Assembly (NCBI GenBank): GCA_038062015.1
Contig: JBBTXZ010000004.1
Location: forward strand, 1 to 57,066
Length of the DNA stretch: 57,066 nucleotides
Direction of reading: 5' to 3'
DNA from: Patescibacteria group bacterium
GTDB lineage: Bacteria > Patescibacteriota > Minisyncoccia > 2-02-FULL-40-12
Below the pieces are notes generated by a model. It was not told where the DNA came from. It made no database searches and saw only the letters and a list, made by a program, of their open reading frames with translations. Positions 1,820 through 17,458 of the stretch are shown here, piece by piece. Position numbers and translations under genes: made by a program. How positions within the stretch are numbered: the first letter of the stretch is position 1; every line of letters begins with the position of its first letter.

Positions 1820-3919
1820 ATGACCAAAGTCAAAAAGTTTTCAACTGAATACGGGGGCAGAAAACTGGAAGTAGAAATAGGCAAACTGGCTGAACAAGCA
1901 GACGGTTCTGTTTTTATTAGATACGGCGACACTTCAGTTTTAGTGACAGCGATAATGAACGATTTTCAAAAAGACGCAAACTATATGCCCCTGATTGTAG
2001 ATTACGAAGAAAGATATTACGCCGCCGGAAAAATAAAAGGCTCAAGATGGATAAAAAGAGAGACCCGGCCCGGCGAAGAAGCGATTCTCCATGCCCGGAT
2101 GATTGACCGGACCCTGCGCCCCCGCTTTGATCAAAGGATTAGAAACGAAATTCAAATAGTCGCTACCGTCCTCTCTTTTGACGGAGAAAACGACCCGGAT
2201 ATACCTAGCCTTATCGGCGCTTCTTTGGCTTTGATGGTTTCGGATATTCCTTTTTCGGGCCCGGTGGCCGGAGCCAGAATCGGAGAGATAAATGGAGAAT
2301 TGGTCTTAAATCCTAATTATGAACAAAGGGTAAAATCATCTTTTGATCTAGTTGTCGCCGGAATAGACGAAAAAGTGAGCATGCTGGAATTTGAAGGAAA
2401 CCAGATTCCGGAAGACCGGGTTCTAAAAGCCATTGACTTCGGCCATAAAGAATACAAAAAAATAATTGAATTCCAGGCTGGAATCGCCGGCCAGCTTAAA
2501 ACCGAAAAAAGAAAACTGGAAATTTTTGAACCGGAAGAAAAAGTAATCAAGGCGATAAAAAATTTTCTCAAAGACAAGCTGGAAAAGGCCATTTATGAAA
2601 CCAATGGCAAAACTAAAACTTGGTCAGCTTTGGATGCTTTAAAAAATTTGCTGATTGAACACTTAAAAGAAAATTATAAAGACAACTCGGACTTATTCAA
2701 AATTTTAAAAGAGCTTGAAAACATAGTTGGCCAAGAATTAGATGAAATCGTCCATAAAAACATTTTGGAAAAAGAAAGAAGGTCTGATGGAAGAAAATTA
2801 GACCAGATAAGGCCCTTGAATATTGAGGCCGGAGTATTACCGAGAACCCACGGTTCGGCCATTTTCCAACGGGGCGAAACCCAGATTTTAAACATCCTGA
2901 CTTTGGGCAGTCCGGGCAAAGAACAATGGATTGAAGAAATGGAAACCGAAAAAAAGAAATACTTTATGCACCATTATAATTTCCCGCCTTTCTCCGTCGG
3001 CGAAACCGGCCGGGTCGGCTTTCCGGGCCGAAGAGAGATCGGCCACGGCGTTTTAGCCGAAAAATCCCTTGAACCAGTCGTACCAACTAAAGAAAACTTC
3101 CCCTACACTATCCGCCTTGTTTCGGAAGCTTTATCATCTAACGGCTCAACTTCAATGGCTTCGGTCTGCGCTTCTTCTTTGGCTCTGATGGACGGCGGAG
3201 TACCGATAAAAGAACCAGTGGCCGGTATTTCAATCGGCCTGGCTTTATCGCCGGACAAAAAAAGATTCAAGCTTTTAACTGACATCCAAGGCGAAGAAGA
3301 CCATTACGGCGACATGGATTTCAAAGTGGCTGGCACGAAAAATGGAATTACAGGCATTCAGTTAGATGTCAAAACCGACGGGTTGACTAATGAAATAGCT
3401 GAAGCCGCTTTAGAAGAAGCCCGCAAAGCCAGGCTTTATATTCTTGAAGAAATGAAAAAAGTGATTGCCTCGCCTCGGCCCGAACTTTCGCCTTTCGCCC
3501 CCAGAGTCTACAAAATCCAGATCAACCCGGACAAAATCCGAAATGTCATCGGACCGGGCGGCAAAATCATCAATGAAATCATTGCCCAGACCGGAGTCAA
3601 TATAGATATTGAGGACTCGGGTTTGGTCTTTGTCACTTCGGAAAAAGAAGAGGGAGCTAAGAAGGCGCTTGAATGGATTAATAACCTGACTAGAGAAGTT
3701 AAAGCCGGGGAAATTTTTGAAGGAATCGTAGTTAAGATTACTGACTTCGGCGCTTTTATTGAGCTTTTCCCGAACCAGGACGGTTTGGTCCATATCTCGG
3801 AAATCTCGGACAAACGGATTGAAAGAGTTTCCGATGTTTTGAAAGTCGGCGACATGGCCAGAGTAAAAGTCAAAAAAATAGATGAACAGGGCCGAGTCAG
3901 TCTGACGATGAAATTCTAG
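1820..3919 (+). CDS. pnp: polynucleotide phosphorylase
   Basis: 699 aa. Two RNase PH domains, a KH domain (NVIGPGGKIINEI) and an S1 domain (GIVVKITDFGAFIEL). Confidence 0.95.
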   Translation: MTKVKKFSTEYGGRKLEVEIGKLAEQADGSVFIRYGDTSVLVTAIMNDFQKDANYMPLIVDYEERYYAAGKIKGSRWIKRETRPGEEAILHARMIDRTLRPRFDQRIRNEIQIVATVLSFDGENDPDIPSLIGASLALMVSDIPFSGPVAGARIGEINGELVLNPNYEQRVKSSFDLVVAGIDEKVSMLEFEGNQIPEDRVLKAIDFGHKEYKKIIEFQAGIAGQLKTEKRKLEIFEPEEKVIKAIKNFLKDKLEKAIYETNGKTKTWSALDALKNLLIEHLKENYKDNSDLFKILKELENIVGQELDEIVHKNILEKERRSDGRKLDQIRPLNIEAGVLPRTHGSAIFQRGETQILNILTLGSPGKEQWIEEMETEKKKYFMHHYNFPPFSVGETGRVGFPGRREIGHGVLAEKSLEPVVPTKENFPYTIRLVSEALSSNGSTSMASVCASSLALMDGGVPIKEPVAGISIGLALSPDKKRFKLLTDIQGEEDHYGDMDFKVAGTKNGITGIQLDVKTDGLTNEIAEAALEEARKARLYILEEMKKVIASPRPELSPFAPRVYKIQINPDKIRNVIGPGGKIINEIIAQTGVNIDIEDSGLVFVTSEKEEGAKKALEWINNLTREVKAGEIFEGIVVKITDFGAFIELFPNQDGLVHISEISDKRIERVSDVLKVGDMARVKVKKIDEQGRVSLTMKF

Positions 3920-4072
3920 CTCGGGTTGTGTCATTTGAAGGATTATTTGTCTGCGAGTCTTGAGAGAAGAAATTGCTATACCGAGTCGCTTTCGTGAATT
4001 AGCTATACTTCAAGTAAGTTATTCACAGCCTGGTATTTATCATCTCTTAAAAGAAAACATATAATATACGTA

Positions 4073-5287
4073 ATGCCAGACGAACTAAAAAATCAGGGGG
4101 ACCAAAAACCTATTTCTTTGGAGCCGCCCAAAGATATTGAAAATCTTTTAAAAGAGCTGCCCAAAATCGATCCCCCCAAACCCACAGCTCCTCCGGTTTT
4201 ATCTCCGCCAAAACCTCAAACACCGCCTCCCCTAAAACCCATATCTCCCCCTCCAGCCTCCAGCCTCCAGCCTCCAGCTCCCCAGAGTGCTAAATCTTTT
4301 GTCCGAACAATGGCCGAAGATCTTGAAGCCGCCAAAAAAGGGATTAAACCGGAATCGAAGCCATTTGAAATCAAACCGCCGCCGAGCATCCCCAAAACGA
4401 CTCCTCTGCCGCCTCCTTTAAAAATACCTTCTTCCCCCCAGATAAAACTCGGACCGGCAGAAAAAACCAAATCATTGGAATTGCCTAAAATAGAGCCTTT
4501 GCCATCAAGCCCTCCATCTGCCAGAAAATTCGCTTTAAGCCCGAAGTTTTTAATTCTTATTTTGGTTATAATCGCGGCAGTCTTTGCCGGAGCCTGGTTT
4601 TTCCTGACCAGAGAACCAAAACAAGTGGTGGTTATTACGCCAACCCCCGCCCCGACTTCCAGCCCAACGCCAAAAACTTTTTCCGAACTCATTCCTTCTA
4701 CCAGTCAAATTACCATTTCCTCAACTAAAAATTTCCTGACCGTCCTGACTAGCGAAATAAACTCTCTGACTTTAACCGCCGGCAGTCTGACTTTCTTAAA
4801 TCTTATTGATGAAAATGGCGCTCCGTATTCCCTGAATCAAATTTTTGAAAAACTAGGCATTATCCCTCCAGCTGGCCTCTTGGAAAATCTGGATTCCGAT
4901 GAATGGATGATCGCTGCTTACGGTCAAAAAGAGTCATTCAATTCAAAGAGTCTCTTAACTTTCAATGAAGCGCCCAAACCGAAAATAGTCTTAGCAGCCA
5001 AGATATTCGACTTAATTCCTTTAAGAAGCACATTAAACAACTGGGAGTCTGCCATGACCGACGACTTAAAAAACTTATTCGGCCTCGATTCAAAAAAAGC
5101 AACCAGCGAAACATTTCTGGATAATATCTATGGCGGAATCGACATCCGATACCGAAACTTTCCTTTTGCCGATAAAAGTATTGATTACGCTATCGTCAGT
5201 CTAACCGAATTCAATGCTGATTACTTTGTTCTTGCCGGCTCCAGAGAAAGCATTTATTCGGCTATTGATCTCTTGCAACGTCAATAA
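4073..5287 (+). CDS. proline-rich membrane-anchored protein, function unknown
   Basis: N-terminal 150 aa are Pro-rich low complexity, followed by one TM helix (FLILILVIIAAVFAGAWFFL) and a C-terminal globular part. Confidence 0.6.
   Translation: MPDELKNQGDQKPISLEPPKDIENLLKELPKIDPPKPTAPPVLSPPKPQTPPPLKPISPPPASSLQPPAPQSAKSFVRTMAEDLEAAKKGIKPESKPFEIKPPPSIPKTTPLPPPLKIPSSPQIKLGPAEKTKSLELPKIEPLPSSPPSARKFALSPKFLILILVIIAAVFAGAWFFLTREPKQVVVITPTPAPTSSPTPKTFSELIPSTSQITISSTKNFLTVLTSEINSLTLTAGSLTFLNLIDENGAPYSLNQIFEKLGIIPPAGLLENLDSDEWMIAAYGQKESFNSKSLLTFNEAPKPKIVLAAKIFDLIPLRSTLNNWESAMTDDLKNLFGLDSKKATSETFLDNIYGGIDIRYRNFPFADKSIDYAIVSLTEFNADYFVLAGSRESIYSAIDLLQRQ
4251..4278. repeat. 4 perfect tandem copies of heptamer CTCCAGC (reverse complement GCTGGAG) inside a CDS
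   Basis: Read directly: ctccagc x4. Confidence 0.9.
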
Positions 5288-5830: not shown

Positions 5831-7384
5831 ATGACCTCAAAAATATTTTCTGCCGCCATCATCGGACTTGACGCCATTCCGATTGAAGTTGAAGTTGATA
5901 CCTCGCGCGGCCTGCCTTCTTTCAATATCGTCGGCCTGCCGGATAAAACCGTCCAAGAATCAAAAGACCGGATAAATTCGGCCATAAAAAATTCCGGCCT
6001 CCAAAATCCTAAAAAAGAAAACCTGAAAATAGTGGTTAATCTTGCTCCGGCCGACATAAAAAAACAGGGGCCGACTTATGACCTGCCGATCGCCGCCTGT
6101 TACCTTTTGAACACCAAGCAGGTTGAATTCGACTACAAAGAAAAAATTTTCGCCGGAGAACTGGCTCTGGATGGCTCATTAAGAAGTATAACCGGAGTTT
6201 TGTCGATCGCTCTAATGGCCAGAGATCGCGGATTTAAAGAACTAATCCTACCCAAACAAAACACCAAAGAAGCCAGCCTGATCAAGGGAATCAGAATTAT
6301 CGGCCTTAAAAATTTAACCGAACTGGCCGCCTACTTAAACGGTCAAATTTTGATTGAGCCGGAAAAACCGGCTGATTTCTCAAAATTATTAATCGACGGT
6401 AACAATCAAGATTTCGACATCTCTGAAATCAAGGGGCAGGAAACAGCCAAAAGGGGCATGGCCATTGCCGCAGCCGGCTTCCACAATATCCTTTTGACCG
6501 GGCCGCCGGGCGCCGGAAAAACAATGCTGGCCAAAGCCCTGCCTTCAATCATGCCGGCTCTTTCTTTAAAGGAAGCTCTCGAAATAACTAAAATACACAG
6601 TATTGCCAACGTTTTAAAATATACGGAAGAAGACAATGGCTATTTAATCAGTCAGAGGCAATTTAGAAATCCACATCATACTGCTTCGGCCGCGGCTTTG
6701 GTCGGCGGCGGAGCCAATCCCAGGCCCGGCGAAATAAGCCTGGCCCATCGGGGCGTTTTGTTTTTGGACGAATTCCCGGAATTCAACCGCGACGTTTTGG
6801 AATCTCTGCGCCAGCCCCTTGAAGAAGGAAAAATTTCAGTTTCGCGGGCCAGCCACTCAATCACCTATCCAGCCAGGTTTCTATTAGTCGCTTCAATGAA
6901 CCCCTGCCCCTGCGGAAATTATCAAAATCCCCAAAAAGAATGCCTCTGCGCTCCGGGAACCATAATGCGATACCAGAAAAAAATCTCCGGCCCGCTCTTG
7001 GACCGATTCGACATTAAATTAAACGTGCCGCAGGAAGACCCCAGAAAATTAAAAGACGAACCGAATTACCAAGAATCAAAAGAGACAAGAAAACTGGTGG
7101 AAGCAGCGAGACAAAAACAGCTTGAGCGTTTTCAAGAAAGCGGAATCTTCACCAATTCGGAGATGACTAATCGTCAAGTGAGAAAGTTTTGCAAAATTGA
7201 TCCGGAAACCGAAGAAACTTTAGACAATTACGCCACTGTGAAAAAAATAAGCCACCGGGCTTATTTCAAAATTTTGAAGCTGGCCCGGACCATCGCTGAT
7301 TTGGAGGGCCGGGAAAATATTTTGGGGCAGGATATAAACGAGGCCTTCATCTACAAAAACGATGGTGTGCTGGTGACTTTATAA
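5831..7384 (+). CDS. comM: YifB/ComM Mg-chelatase-like AAA+ ATPase
   Basis: Lon-protease-like N-domain. Walker A GPPGAGKT. VLFLDEFPEF. C-terminal ChlI-like region. Confidence 0.9.
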   Translation: MTSKIFSAAIIGLDAIPIEVEVDTSRGLPSFNIVGLPDKTVQESKDRINSAIKNSGLQNPKKENLKIVVNLAPADIKKQGPTYDLPIAACYLLNTKQVEFDYKEKIFAGELALDGSLRSITGVLSIALMARDRGFKELILPKQNTKEASLIKGIRIIGLKNLTELAAYLNGQILIEPEKPADFSKLLIDGNNQDFDISEIKGQETAKRGMAIAAAGFHNILLTGPPGAGKTMLAKALPSIMPALSLKEALEITKIHSIANVLKYTEEDNGYLISQRQFRNPHHTASAAALVGGGANPRPGEISLAHRGVLFLDEFPEFNRDVLESLRQPLEEGKISVSRASHSITYPARFLLVASMNPCPCGNYQNPQKECLCAPGTIMRYQKKISGPLLDRFDIKLNVPQEDPRKLKDEPNYQESKETRKLVEAARQKQLERFQESGIFTNSEMTNRQVRKFCKIDPETEETLDNYATVKKISHRAYFKILKLARTIADLEGRENILGQDINEAFIYKNDGVLVTL

Positions 7385-7563: not shown

Positions 7564-7863
7564 CTACCACACTTGGGTCTTGCCCTCCCGTTGGAGGTCC
7601 CAAGCCGTGAACACCGCTCCAGCCTCGACCAGCCGTTTGACGACTGGGAGGAGCTGGGAGCTCGTCCCGCCGTTGGCGATGAGCGTGTAGCTTTCGCCGG
7701 CGGCGGGAGCGAACGCGCTCACGGGGACAACTTCGACTCCAGCCGGAGGCTGAAGCTGATCTCCGTCCCGAGAGATCACGAGCACACCCTGCTCGTTGGG
7801 GAATCCCCGACGCGCATCCGCGAGGATGCCTTCCGTGTTGCGACCGAGAAATGATAGAATCAT
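7564..7863 (-). CDS. hypothetical 99-aa protein in GC-rich cassette a
   Basis: AAGGAGAAGAAC precedes the ATG. Hand count of 7561-7860 gives 189/300 = 63% G+C. This frame looks protein-like, while the two overlapping frames are Arg/Gly-rich junk. No family recognised. Confidence 0.5.
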   Translation of the reverse strand: MILSFLGRNTEGILADARRGFPNEQGVLVISRDGDQLQPPAGVEVVPVSAFAPAAGESYTLIANGGTSSQLLPVVKRLVEAGAVFTAWDLQREGKTQVW

Positions 7864-8143: not shown

Positions 8144-8380
8144 TTACCAGCCCTCGCACTCTTTTTTTGGGACTTGCACCCAGCGGGCGTACAGCCCGCC
8201 GAGGATCCCTTTGGTGCCCTCTCGGCGGTACCCAGCCACGGCAACGTACCAGTTGCCGTTGACTTGGGTCAAATCCCCCGCATTGGGGGTTTGATCCAAT
8301 CGGGCTCGGGGCCATGCTCCGAGCATGCCTTCTTCTGACCCTGGCTGAGCGGCGATAGCCGCCATTTCCTCTTTTTTCAT
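8144..8380 (-). CDS. hypothetical 78-aa protein in GC-rich cassette b
   Basis: ATG at 8380 lies 6 nt after GGGGAGGGCGGG. About 62% G+C in the line sampled. The longer TTG-initiated 100-aa version would include leader sequence. No family recognised. Confidence 0.45.
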   Translation of the reverse strand: MKKEEMAAIAAQPGSEEGMLGAWPRARLDQTPNAGDLTQVNGNWYVAVAGYRREGTKGILGGLYARWVQVPKKECEGW

Positions 8381-8611: not shown

Positions 8612-8617
8612 ACTTTA

Positions 8618-8646
8618 ATTATACACCCATATTGAAACTTTGTCAA
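8618..8646 (-). promoter_or_regulatory. perfect consensus sigma70 promoter driving cassette b
   Basis: The minus strand reads TTGACA-aagtttcaatatgggtg(17)-TATAAT. The -35 element overlaps the stop codon of the upstream M23 gene. Confidence 0.7.
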
Positions 8647-15414: not shown

Positions 15415-16311
15415 ATGCCGGAATTGCCTGAAGTTGAAACAATCGCCAAAGAACTAAAAAAGAAAATTGTCGGCCTAAAAATAACTGATGTTTGGACTGA
15501 TCGAGAAAAGCCGTTTAGGCAAAGTGGTGGACTTAAAAAATTCTTAAAAGAAATTAAGAATAGGAAAATCGTTGATGTTCGCCGGAGAGCTAAGTTTGTA
15601 ATTATAAATATAGAAGGACCTAAAAGTATTTTTATCCATCAAAAAATCTCTGGGCATCTGCTATACGGACGCTGGAAACTTGAAGCTGGAAACTGGAAAG
15701 CTGAAAAAGCTGGGCCGCTTCGAGACGATCGACAAAATAAATATCTGCGGATAATTTTCTTCTTGAATAATGGCTATCAGTTGGCTTTATCGGATTTAAG
15801 ACGTTTTGGAAAAGTTATGCTGATTGGCGACAGAGAAATTGAAAACCTGAAAGAATTAAAAAAATTAGGGCCGGAGCCGCTGGAAATAAGCTTCAGCCAG
15901 TTTAAAAAACTGTTTGACCCTTCGACAAAGCTCAGGGCAAGAAAAAAAGGCCGGCTAAAACCGGTTTTAATGGATCCTTATTTCATCGCCGGAATCGGCA
16001 ATATTTACTCTGACGAAATCCTCTGGAACGCCGGGTATCATCCTTTAACGCGAGTTGAAAAATTAAAGGAAAATGATTTAAAAAAGATTTTTAATTCAAT
16101 GATAAAAGTTTTGAGTAAAGCGATTAAATATCAGGGTGATAGCATGGATGATTACCGGCTGCCGTCAGGAGAGAAGGGGCATTATCAGGAAATCCAGAAT
16201 GCTTACCAGCAGACTGGAAAAAAATGCAAAAAAGGAGATGGCGGCATAATTCAAAGAATTAAGATTGGAGGTCGTTCCGCCCATTTTTGTCCGAAGCATC
16301 AAAAGTTATAA
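15415..16311 (+). CDS. mutM: formamidopyrimidine-DNA glycosylase
   Basis: MPELPEVE N-terminus, H2TH, C-terminal zinc finger CKKGDG...GRSAHFCPKHQ. Confidence 0.92.
   Translation: MPELPEVETIAKELKKKIVGLKITDVWTDREKPFRQSGGLKKFLKEIKNRKIVDVRRRAKFVIINIEGPKSIFIHQKISGHLLYGRWKLEAGNWKAEKAGPLRDDRQNKYLRIIFFLNNGYQLALSDLRRFGKVMLIGDREIENLKELKKLGPEPLEISFSQFKKLFDPSTKLRARKKGRLKPVLMDPYFIAGIGNIYSDEILWNAGYHPLTRVEKLKENDLKKIFNSMIKVLSKAIKYQGDSMDDYRLPSGEKGHYQEIQNAYQQTGKKCKKGDGGIIQRIKIGGRSAHFCPKHQKL
15671..15712. repeat. heptamer tandem array GCTGGAA/ACTTGAA/GCTGGAA/ACTGGAA/AGCTGAA/AAAGCTG inside mutM
   Basis: Read directly. Encodes WKLEAGNWKAEKAG. Confidence 0.8.
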
Positions 16312-16537
16312 TCCTATCTTTAAGTTTTTCAGTATTACCCCATTTCAATAATCCCAGATAAGAATTAAGAATTTCGGAAGTTGGCGATTCTTTCAATTTT
16401 TTAAACATCCTCCTCTTGGTGGTAGTTCTTAAAACTAGATGGTCCGGGAAATGAATCCAACCTAAGAAATCAATTCCTGAAGCAAGAGTTTTCTCTCGCC
16501 ACTGTATCGTATTTGGAGTTTTTAAACTCTCCAACAT
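16312..16537 (-). pseudogene. C-terminal remnant of a DGR-type / group II-like reverse transcriptase
   Basis: GIDFLGWIHFPDHLVLRTTTKRRMFKKL...SYLGLLKWGNT resembles the thumb-proximal end of DGR reverse transcriptases. No room or ORF exists for fingers/palm (YxDD) upstream. The ORF tail runs antisense into mutM. Confidence 0.6.
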
Positions 16538-16630
16538 ATTGCACCAAGTAGCTTATTTTTTTATTTTACGGAATTGGGCCGTCTGAAACCTTAGTCGCAG
16601 ACCAATTGGCCTACTATCCTGTTTCTATTG

Positions 16631-16669
16631 TAACAAAAATGCCCGAGAAGTTTAACAAACTTCTCGGGC
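16631..16669 (-). terminator. Rho-independent terminator of cassette c
   Basis: GCCCGAGAAG-tttgttaaa-CTTCTCGGGC, then ATTTTTGTT on the minus strand. Confidence 0.75.
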
Positions 16670-16709
16670 AGAAACAAAGGGATCCAAGGACCAAGTGTCC
16701 AAGGGCCTA

Positions 16710-17258
16710 CTACTTGCCAGGAGCCGCGAGACGATAGTCGCGATGGAAATCGCTGTCAAGCCAGCTGAAGCCCAGAGCCCACCGGTCGCCGCCCCAGTCG
16801 AGGCACGGCACAATCCGGTCGCCGTCGCGGTACTGCCAGATAGTGGCCGTGAAGATCAGTACAAAGTTTCGGAGCTCGGTCGGAATATTGTCCTGGTTCT
16901 CCAACAGCCATTCGGCGTCTTCTTGGCCAAGGTTAGCATCAAGAGACGGTATACGGGACCGACGCACCGTCTCTTCGCCGTTCACGTTGTCCTCGCCGTC
17001 CTTGTGGAACGGGATGCCGATGATGGCGCCGGAGATGCGACGCGGCTGGTTCTCCAAAAGCATCAAACCATCTTTCCGCTTGTCATGGCGGAAGTTGCCG
17101 AAAACTGATCCAAAGCGACCCTCAATGGCTGCCTGAAGATGCGCTTTGAGCTGAAAAGCATCGAACGGATAACCGTTTAACTGCCTCAACTGGCGACCGA
17201 TCTCGAATAACTGTCCCGTGATGCTTTCGTACAGATCGCCTGCGACCATATTGGCCAT
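16710..17258 (-). CDS. hypothetical 182-aa protein in GC-rich cassette c
   Basis: AAGGAGAATCGTC precedes the ATG. Sampled lines give 58-67% G+C. Has its own terminator. The sequence looks globular (repeated LLENQ; C-terminal WQYRDGDRIVPCLDWGGDRWALGFSWLD). No family recognised. Confidence 0.6.
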   Translation of the reverse strand: MANMVAGDLYESITGQLFEIGRQLRQLNGYPFDAFQLKAHLQAAIEGRFGSVFGNFRHDKRKDGLMLLENQPRRISGAIIGIPFHKDGEDNVNGEETVRRSRIPSLDANLGQEDAEWLLENQDNIPTELRNFVLIFTATIWQYRDGDRIVPCLDWGGDRWALGFSWLDSDFHRDYRLAAPGK

Positions 17259-17283
17259 GACGATTCTCCTTGTGTTGGCTGCG

Positions 17284-17330
17284 TCAATGCAGCGATTTGA
17301 CTATTTTCTGTAGCCAAATCGCTGCATTGA
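17284..17330 (-). promoter_or_regulatory. 16-bp perfect-stem hairpin in the leader of cassette c
   Basis: TCAATGCAGCGATTTG (17284-17299) pairs with CAAATCGCTGCATTGA (17315-17330), 26 nt upstream of the start codon. Confidence 0.5.
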
Positions 17331-17458
17331 TTCGTAAGTAATTATTGCATATAAAGTGCTGTTTTTAGGTGTTTTTCAACCTATATATTTATTATACACC
17401 CAAACAATATACTTGTCAAATGCCAATATTGATTCTCTGTTCTACTATAAAAAGCGAA

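Follow-up and report, generated by a model that had tools for sequence, protein, structure and literature searches.

In a 57,066-nt stretch of contig JBBTXZ010000004.1 from a Patescibacteria group bacterium (assembly GCA_038062015.1; hereafter, the window), a GC-rich minus-strand open reading frame (ORF) of 182 codons stands directly upstream of a reverse transcriptase (RT) fragment, between fpg and holA. How did such a gene come to lie next to such a fragment? The initial annotation, which correctly placed the ORF at 16710-17258, offered two answers: a GC-rich cassette had inserted into or replaced part of an RT locus, or the ORF was the former target or accessory gene of a decayed retroelement. 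Our analysis favors the second answer. The locus is very probably a decayed diversity-generating retroelement (DGR) of the Patescibacteria/Candidate Phyla Radiation (CPR) type in which the target gene survives intact. The ORF's homologs serve as targets in intact DGRs, and the window reads as the layout of one such relative, locus L050, minus 1,337 nt.

A search of 5.8 billion proteins recovered 207 homologs of the encoded protein (34 to 95% identity), all from Patescibacteria/Parcubacteria-type (CPR) metagenomes, all labeled “hypothetical,” and none with a Pfam domain. A profile of the family matched 5,414 proteins at E ≤ 1e-3 among 1.84 billion cluster representatives, these too of Patescibacteria/CPR origin and outside Pfam. 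In relatives, the target gene ends in a variable repeat (VR) at its C terminus; a structured RNA leader and a template repeat (TR) follow, then bAvd, encoded on the opposite strand, and last a DGR-type RT. We found a target followed by a reverse-strand bAvd and an RVT_1 RT at L004/L011, L006/L009, L050, L018, L019, L026, L027, L029, L031, L039, L045, and other loci, and the full architecture at 14 to 15 of 40 loci (one genome per species); in other genomes, the cassette occupies unrelated neighborhoods. The RTs of these relatives are 316 to 340 residues long and carry the DGR hallmark motifs LGNLTSQ and YADD. The last ~125 nt of the target gene recurs ~290 nt downstream with 81 to 83% identity, and the mismatches between VR and TR fall at TR adenines in 19 of 20 cases in L011 and 19 of 21 in L009. 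Because VR/TR mismatches concentrated at adenines occur together with bAvd and an RT, the homologs of the ORF are the variable genes of DGRs.

The gene in the window retains the features of such a target. Its VR can be multiply aligned with the VR/TR pairs of L050, L009, and L011, and its end, which resembles an initiation of mutagenic homing (IMH) site, is followed by a GC-rich 14-bp inverted repeat at 16670-16640, the arrangement that characterizes DGR targets. Orthology to the targets of intact DGRs, a VR alignable to TRs, and flanks colinear with intact cassettes together mark the gene as an orphaned target. What marks a functional DGR, namely, a motif-bearing RT, a TR/VR pair, and bAvd, is absent from the window: tblastn detected no Avd, and the window contains no other RT, no TR or second VR copy, and no paralog of the target.

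Base-level alignment to L050 accounts for this loss by a single gap. Upstream of the gap, window positions 17374-16502 are colinear with L050 2316-3191 (77% identity); downstream of it, positions 16492-16306 are colinear with L050 4538-4724. Missing from the window relative to L050 are ~1,337 nt (3201-4537), which comprise the 3′ half of the third leader hairpin, the TR, avd, and RT codons 1-265. The deleted part of the RT, about 80% of the protein, carries the LGNLTSQ and YADD motifs. We found no foreign DNA at the deletion junction. What remains corresponds to the last residues of DGR RTs, from about residue 249/266 onward; it matches residues 249-309 of RT_L006 by tblastn (E 3e-19, 61% amino acid identity) and L050 4538-4724 by blastn (79.7% nucleotide identity). 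The fragment noticed earlier is thus indeed an RT fragment, with ~62 to 64 rather than ~75 C-terminal residues retained. The fragment now forms part of a 92-residue ORF (16259-16537) that begins with ~15 codons derived from the noncoding RNA leader, continues in frame into the RT tail, and overlaps the 3′ end of fpg with its own 3′ end. This chimeric ORF is probably nonfunctional.

The junction is not a product of assembly. Five other assemblies, drawn from at least four sequencing runs (several of the same aquifer and one other run), match the sequence from 16200 to 17450, junction included, with 0 mismatches; this sample was chosen by identical protein sequence and is biased towards no variation. 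Misassembly, raised at the outset as a possible objection, is excluded because these five independent assemblies are identical across the junction.

We next consider how the element reached this site. Relatives whose Fpg is 79 to 82% identical have polA, fpg, holA, and GT2 in the same order, and in these syntenic relatives neither a target nor an RT is present between fpg and holA. The whole DGR is therefore an insertion between these two genes, now spanning roughly 16305-17420, and target and RT arrived together. The initial annotation had looked to syntenic loci for an intact RT and TR; the syntenic relatives carry no DGR. It had also regarded as adverse the finding of the same gene with ordinary composition and no RT nearby, or membership in a well-known housekeeping family. 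Syntenic relatives lack the gene altogether, and the protein is not a housekeeping protein.

These comparisons bear on the idea of an older RT locus whose 5′ part was interrupted or replaced by a foreign, GC-rich cassette of one gene. The absence of the gene from syntenic relatives would fit such an arrival, as would its own promoter and terminator and a G+C content 17 points above the genome average, but the RT is absent from the same relatives, and intact relatives have the gene upstream of the RT in the same position and orientation. The same-strand order of target and RT is thus native to this DGR clade, and colinearity with L050 extends to both sides of the gap. Moreover, the target and the RT remnant are 77% and 80% identical to L050, respectively, i.e., equally diverged, and a conserved DGR leader fills the ~210 nt from the gene to the junction. 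High GC content is, furthermore, found in all subfamily members despite saturated synonymous sites. We therefore regard a foreign cassette as very improbable.

As separate observations at the holA side, the syntenic relatives L060 (5979-6161) and L059 (~6190-6486) carry GC-rich palindromic inserts of 185 to 300 nt between a TATAAAAAGCGA motif and the holA start codon. These inserts, which resemble miniature inverted-repeat transposable elements, are absent from the window.

The leader that links the target to the junction is conserved across the clade over these ~210 nt, and its third hairpin is cut by the deletion. RNAalifold applied to nine loci predicted 22 pairs, 16 of which show compensatory changes. 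A covariance model (R1) built from 11 loci and searched against 502 kb matched the window at 16563-16474 with 66 bits (E 2e-12) and elsewhere only between target and TR, at 15 loci. The corresponding RNAs lie at 3052-3236 in L050, 6623-6834 in L009, and 6623-6837 in L011, and the RNA is present at 11 other loci. No Rfam family matched the leader: at the gathering threshold the window, and by E value both 16200-17450 and the intact L009 locus, gave solely tRNAs and subthreshold hairpin noise. We infer that this structured RNA is a separately promoted 5′ leader of the TR transcript.

Could the GC-rich island itself be a structured noncoding RNA, or an artifact of assembly, with the ORF being spurious? 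RNA genes often form GC-rich islands in AT-rich genomes, and GC-rich DNA readily yields long ORFs. The protein, however, is conserved at 34 to 95% identity with low ratios of nonsynonymous to synonymous substitution (dN/dS), and the G+C content of its three codon positions follows a coding-like pattern (0.61, 0.39, and 0.69 for GC1, GC2, and GC3). Against its relatives, the target has a dN/dS of 0.42 to 0.71 in the VR (the last 44 codons) and of 0.07 to 0.27 in the N-terminal and middle parts, with a dS of about 1 to 1.7. AlphaFold2 (AF2) models of the protein are confident, Rfam yields no match, and independent assemblies agree. A spurious ORF is thus scarcely credible; the substitution pattern shows a genuine gene on which purifying selection acts. 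We also considered and rejected a group II intron, a retron, or a noncoding RNA of the type associated with defense-associated RTs upstream of the RT, since the GC-rich stretch is protein coding and relatives show DGR architecture.

We turn to the composition of the gene. The ORF has 56.6% G+C (GC3, 69%; adenine at third positions, 9%), compared with 40.3% for the window and 36 to 39% for polA, fpg, and holA. An earlier estimate of 58 to 67% correctly identified the gene as GC rich, but the values in 100-nt windows are slightly lower, at 50 to 64%. Targets of the close subfamily have a GC content of 0.54 to 0.60 and a GC3 of 0.63 to 0.78, whereas their cognate RTs have a GC content of 0.27 to 0.37 and their flanks 0.38 to 0.48. 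The shift affects both kinds of two-fold codons: G-ending codons make up 0.76 in targets, 0.27 in RTs, and 0.24 in host genes, and C-ending codons make up 0.64, 0.29, and 0.38, respectively. Synonymous sites between subfamily members are saturated, yet all members are GC rich, so the composition must have been maintained in each lineage. By this comparison, high G+C is a lineage-stable codon-usage trait of the target subfamily and not a sign of recent foreign origin. Recent horizontal transfer from a GC-rich donor was rejected on the same grounds, with synonymous sites saturated, targets still GC rich, and RTs AT rich. Adenine avoidance was rejected as the sole cause, since both A-to-G and T-to-C synonymous choices are shifted. 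One hypothesis is that GC-biased repair at a frequently recombining or retrohomed locus may lie behind this composition.

The initial annotation described the gene as the third cassette of a common build, alongside two GC-rich small ORFs of the window, cassettes a and b. The likeness is superficial. Cassette a belongs to an unrelated family, the ribosome-binding context that it has in common with the target is a consensus Shine-Dalgarno (SD) sequence, and no homolog of cassette a or b occurs in 64 related loci; a link of either cassette to the DGR was rejected for the first and last of these reasons. The family of cassette a is narrow (22 homologs) and lacks a Pfam domain, and in one other genome cassette a occurs in a run of small hypothetical genes adjoining a UvrD-like helicase. 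Cassette b holds a 23-nt TR-like string (8260-8238, E 0.006) that is probably due to chance.

The protein divides into an N-terminal two-helix module (codons 1-54) and a C-terminal alpha/beta domain of ~128 residues that contains the VR. It is 56 to 72% identical to the targets of L050, L009, and L011. In the family alignment, the N-terminal ~50 residues are nearly invariant (MAxxxVAGELYESITGQLFEIGRQLRQPNGYPFDPxxLKxHLQAAIEGRF), the middle is variable, and the C-terminal part follows the pattern W..G.R.VP.L.W.G.RW.L.F.WL...W....RL...RK. Many proteins found in the profile search align over the C-terminal ~130 residues only; the two parts are therefore separable modules. Proteins P0124 (517 residues), P0145, P0148, P0176, and P0248 have two to four tandem VR-type C-terminal domains, or a C-terminal domain joined to other N termini, and so the N- and C-terminal modules shuffle independently. 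The mean predicted local distance difference test score of the AF2 model is 89 for the full protein and 96.7 for the C-terminal 128 residues (predicted template modeling score, 0.89). In the C-terminal domain, the VR forms the last four to five strands; the N terminus consists of two amphipathic helices. The likely role of this nearly invariant pair of helices is docking of the protein to a conserved partner. A hydrophobic segment is absent from the protein, the highest 19-residue Kyte-Doolittle mean being 0.62. When the ORF, the RT remnant, and 44 family members were scanned against Pfam and NCBIfam, no family was assigned, in agreement with the initial view that the protein matched none that could be named.

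The expression signals of the target gene appear complete (Table 1). Promoter-like boxes are found at the equivalent site in L050, L052, L019, and L012. The leader hairpin reported earlier at 17284-17330 was recovered; its 20-nt arms, at 17284-17303 and 17311-17330, are 95% complementary with one G-U pair and enclose a 7-nt loop. This stem-loop of the 5′ untranslated region (UTR) has a folding z-score of −5.8 and is kept in L050, L052, and L053 with compensatory changes (CAATG/CATTG to CAGTG/CACTG); L009 and L019 have a different stem at this position. The SD string CACAAGGAGAA occurs exactly twice in the window, at 17274-17264 and 7878-7868, both on the minus strand. With one mismatch allowed, 4 sites match where 1.1 are expected, and a count of 4 is reached in 4 of 100 shuffles. 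The resemblance to cassette a noted initially is therefore an identity of strings, but the string is essentially the consensus SD and weak evidence of relatedness. The terminator proposed at 16641-16669 also stood up: it has a perfect 14-bp stem (16640-16670) and a 3-nt loop followed by a T-run, and the stem covaries between loci (GAGAAG/CTTCTC versus GACAGG/CCTGTC). As a further observation, the promoters of two GC-rich regions, at 8617-8645 and 17391-17419, both on the minus strand, have TTGACAA...GGGTGTATAAT in common, which may represent a strong-promoter consensus of the organism.

Table 1. Coordinates of features at the decayed DGR locus and of the two GC-rich cassettes elsewhere in the window
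Feature	Position	Strand	Basis or remark
Target (variable protein) gene	16710-17258	minus	182 aa; homologs are VR-bearing DGR targets
VR, codons ~140-181	16714-16841	minus	72.7% identity to L050 TR (3237-3364)
IMH-like segment CGTCTCGCGGCTCCTGGCAA, 3′ end of VR	16733-16714	minus	2 mismatches to the VR=TR sequence of relatives (L050)
C-terminal remnant of DGR RT, ~62-64 codons	16306-16492	minus	tblastn and blastn
Deletion junction	16493/16492	minus	Base-level alignment to L050
Remnant of TR-RNA transcription unit	16493-16635	minus	Colinear with L050, L009, and L011
Extended −10 box TGTTACAAT (TGnTAnnAT)	16635-16627	minus	Upstream of leader RNA
Leader RNA start, GGAUAGUAG		minus	
Leader RNA hairpin 1	~16607-16572	minus	
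Leader RNA CUACUUGGU		minus	
Leader RNA hairpin 2	16532-16515	minus	
Leader RNA hairpin 3, 5′ half	16504-16493	minus	
Sigma-70-type promoter of target gene, TTGACA-17-TATAAT	17391-17419	minus	12/12 consensus positions; absent from the initial annotation
5′-UTR stem-loop	17284-17330	minus	Followed by conserved ACGCAGCC motif and SD
SD context CACAAGGAGAA	17264-17274	minus	Spacer AATCGTC-ATG-GC conserved across family
Intrinsic terminator, GC-rich hairpin (14 bp) and T-run	16635-16670	minus	Position of the post-IMH hairpin of DGRs
Cassette a	7564-7863	minus	GC-rich small ORF, coding-like codon-position GC
Cassette b	8144-8380	minus	GC-rich small ORF, coding-like codon-position GC

The comparisons show the following history for the locus. 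An ancestral cassette of ~2.45 kb was inserted between fpg and holA. Its target unit had its own promoter, a 5′-UTR hairpin, a strong SD, and a C-terminal VR; a terminator hairpin, a separately promoted leader RNA, and the TR came next, and an oppositely oriented bAvd and a DGR-type RT completed the cassette. In this intact state, a complex of RT and Avd would have copied the TR RNA into adenine-mutagenized cDNA that replaced the VR, thereby diversifying ~20 surface codons of the C-terminal alpha/beta domain, a putative ligand-binding module. One deletion of ~1.34 kb then took out the leader's 3′ end together with the TR and avd, as well as ~265 codons from the start of the RT, the catalytic motifs among them. 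Because TR and RT are gone, diversification in cis would have ceased, leaving the target as a presumably “frozen” allele.

It is conceivable that the target is instead still active and is diversified in trans by a TR and RT elsewhere in the genome, with the adjacent RT scar being irrelevant. Remote DGR targets are known (Wu et al. 2018, PMC5758913), and the VR scaffold is still in place, as are its IMH-like end and the hairpin downstream. Locus L049 (706-1623; 3x coverage, same aquifer), compared with window positions 17600-16683, has 0 mismatches over 814 nt (17600-16787) and differs in the 3′ half of the VR, as ongoing diversification might produce, but allele recombination or a chimeric low-coverage contig accounts for its pattern better than adenine mutagenesis does. 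The window holds no TR, Avd, or intact RT; the VR and the locus are identical in the five assemblies, a sample selected for identical protein; and the IMH-like segment has 2 mismatches to relatives. Diversification in trans is, in our judgment, unlikely, with a small chance left to it.

Several points weigh against the interpretation of the locus as a decayed DGR with a surviving target. The sequence covers 57 kb of the genome, and a second DGR may lie elsewhere in it. The strong divergence of L049 covers the final ~75 nt of the gene (the 3′ half of the VR) and also affects the IMH-like part and the 3′ flank, and adenine mutagenesis alone does not account for the differences in the latter two regions; L049 could be the outcome of allele recombination inside the VR or a chimeric contig. 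With no TR left here, the case that the ancestor of this copy was diversified comes from its relatives. The target gene is probably still expressed because its promoter, SD, ORF, and terminator are all intact, and the fixed allele may still bind a ligand. In addition, Foldseek comparisons (the full model against PDB and BFVD and the C-terminal domain model against PDB) consistently placed C-type lectin domains best, but only at E 0.5 to 5, with template modeling scores of 0.33 to 0.42 and root mean square deviations of 6 to 7 Å. There was no match at E ≤ 0.001, and no solved DGR variable protein was retrieved. The top PDB neighbors of the C-terminal domain were MCL, BDCA2, CLEC4D, and EMS16 (weak matches, E 0.5 to 5), and a search of PDB sequences with the family profile gave nothing below E 0.09. 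Of the folds suggested initially for checking, C-type lectin (CLec)-like or formylglycine-generating enzyme (FGE)-like, C-type lectins ranked first, without significance, so that the CLec fold is at most a candidate; Pfam FGE-sulfatase and DUF1566 did not match. Finally, hydropathy, applied without a dedicated signal-peptide predictor, indicated no signal peptide, lipobox, or transmembrane segment in the target.

The decayed-DGR interpretation changes the annotation of the locus in two places: a “hypothetical protein” becomes an orphaned DGR variable-protein gene, and a called ORF of 92 residues becomes an RT pseudogene scar. It also accounts for the GC-rich island without recent foreign origin, and it provides a base-resolved case of the death of a DGR, in which a single deletion left the target frozen and probably expressed. 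A broader proposal, which we put forward tentatively and hold to be rather doubtful, is that the family goes beyond CLec and forms an unannotated, apparently cytoplasmic class of DGR variable proteins of very large size (>5,000 clusters), characterized by a nearly invariant docking module, a VR domain without significant structural neighbors, a TR RNA with a leader absent from Rfam, and a GC-rich codon usage opposite to that of the RT. What non-membrane CPR DGR targets do is an open question of Roux et al. (PMC8144416), and the target family, the TR-leader RNA, and the opposite codon usage offer handles on it.

We compared the locus with known DGRs, starting with variable proteins of the CLec fold (Mtd, TvpA, AvpA, and TaqVP; PMC5006420, PMC6328139). 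As in these proteins, the VR makes up the last ~45 residues of a compact alpha/beta domain, and the variable positions are set among invariant W, G, L, and F scaffold residues. They differ in that the structural matches are not significant and retrieved no solved DGR variable protein.

In the DGR of Bordetella phage BPP-1 (mtd-avd-TR-brt), the prototype of these elements, mutagenesis is adenine specific (PMC5758913, PMC3240598). The two systems are alike in having a 3′ VR, an IMH-like end, a GC-rich hairpin after the VR, a TR, Avd, and an RT. In the clade of the window locus, however, the TR comes before avd, which is encoded on the opposite strand. A structured RNA under an extended −10 promoter of its own is located 5′ of the TR in this clade, whereas BPP-1 has its functional RNA elements on the 3′ side of the TR. 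The BPP-1 target is a phage tail-fiber protein; the target here is small and apparently cytoplasmic.

The closest likeness in host and layout is to the DGRs previously described in Patescibacteria/CPR (Paul et al. 2017, as cited in PMC5758913) and to “DGR clade 2,” whose CPR targets lack recognizable membrane or other domains (Roux et al. 2021, PMC8144416). The window locus belongs to the same host group, is a chromosomal cassette, and has relatives with bAvd, an RT with LGNLTSQ and YADD, and adenine-specific VR/TR mismatches; like clade 2 members, it has a C-terminal VR in a small target without a known or transmembrane domain (PMC8144416). It differs in that the element is dead, with the TR, avd, and ~80% of the RT deleted. 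Wu et al. 2018 list unnamed VR classes from CPR bacteria (UVR1-6 or ungrouped), to one of which this target family may correspond. The host is an ultrasmall groundwater bacterium, and the locus adds to the known CPR DGRs one in a decayed state.

Other members of the clade also carry a target gene without a working cognate RT or TR nearby. L012 has a TR (~1510) and Avd (1640-1900) and no RT in 4.3 kb; L030 has a leader (2755-2851) and a TR (~2921) and no Avd or RT in 5.9 kb; and in L020, which has a leader (6826-6911), we detected no TR, Avd, or RT. At the P0007 loci L052 (6001-7039) and L053 (90-951), the 3′ flank of the target resembles a TR flank and bAvd overlaps the gene end, so that VR and TR appear to have been fused by recombination with deletion of the spacer. 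These loci suggest that loss of the DGR by deletion is recurrent in this CPR clade. Compared with them, the scar in the window is unusually legible, with a base-exact junction and an RT tail still in frame.

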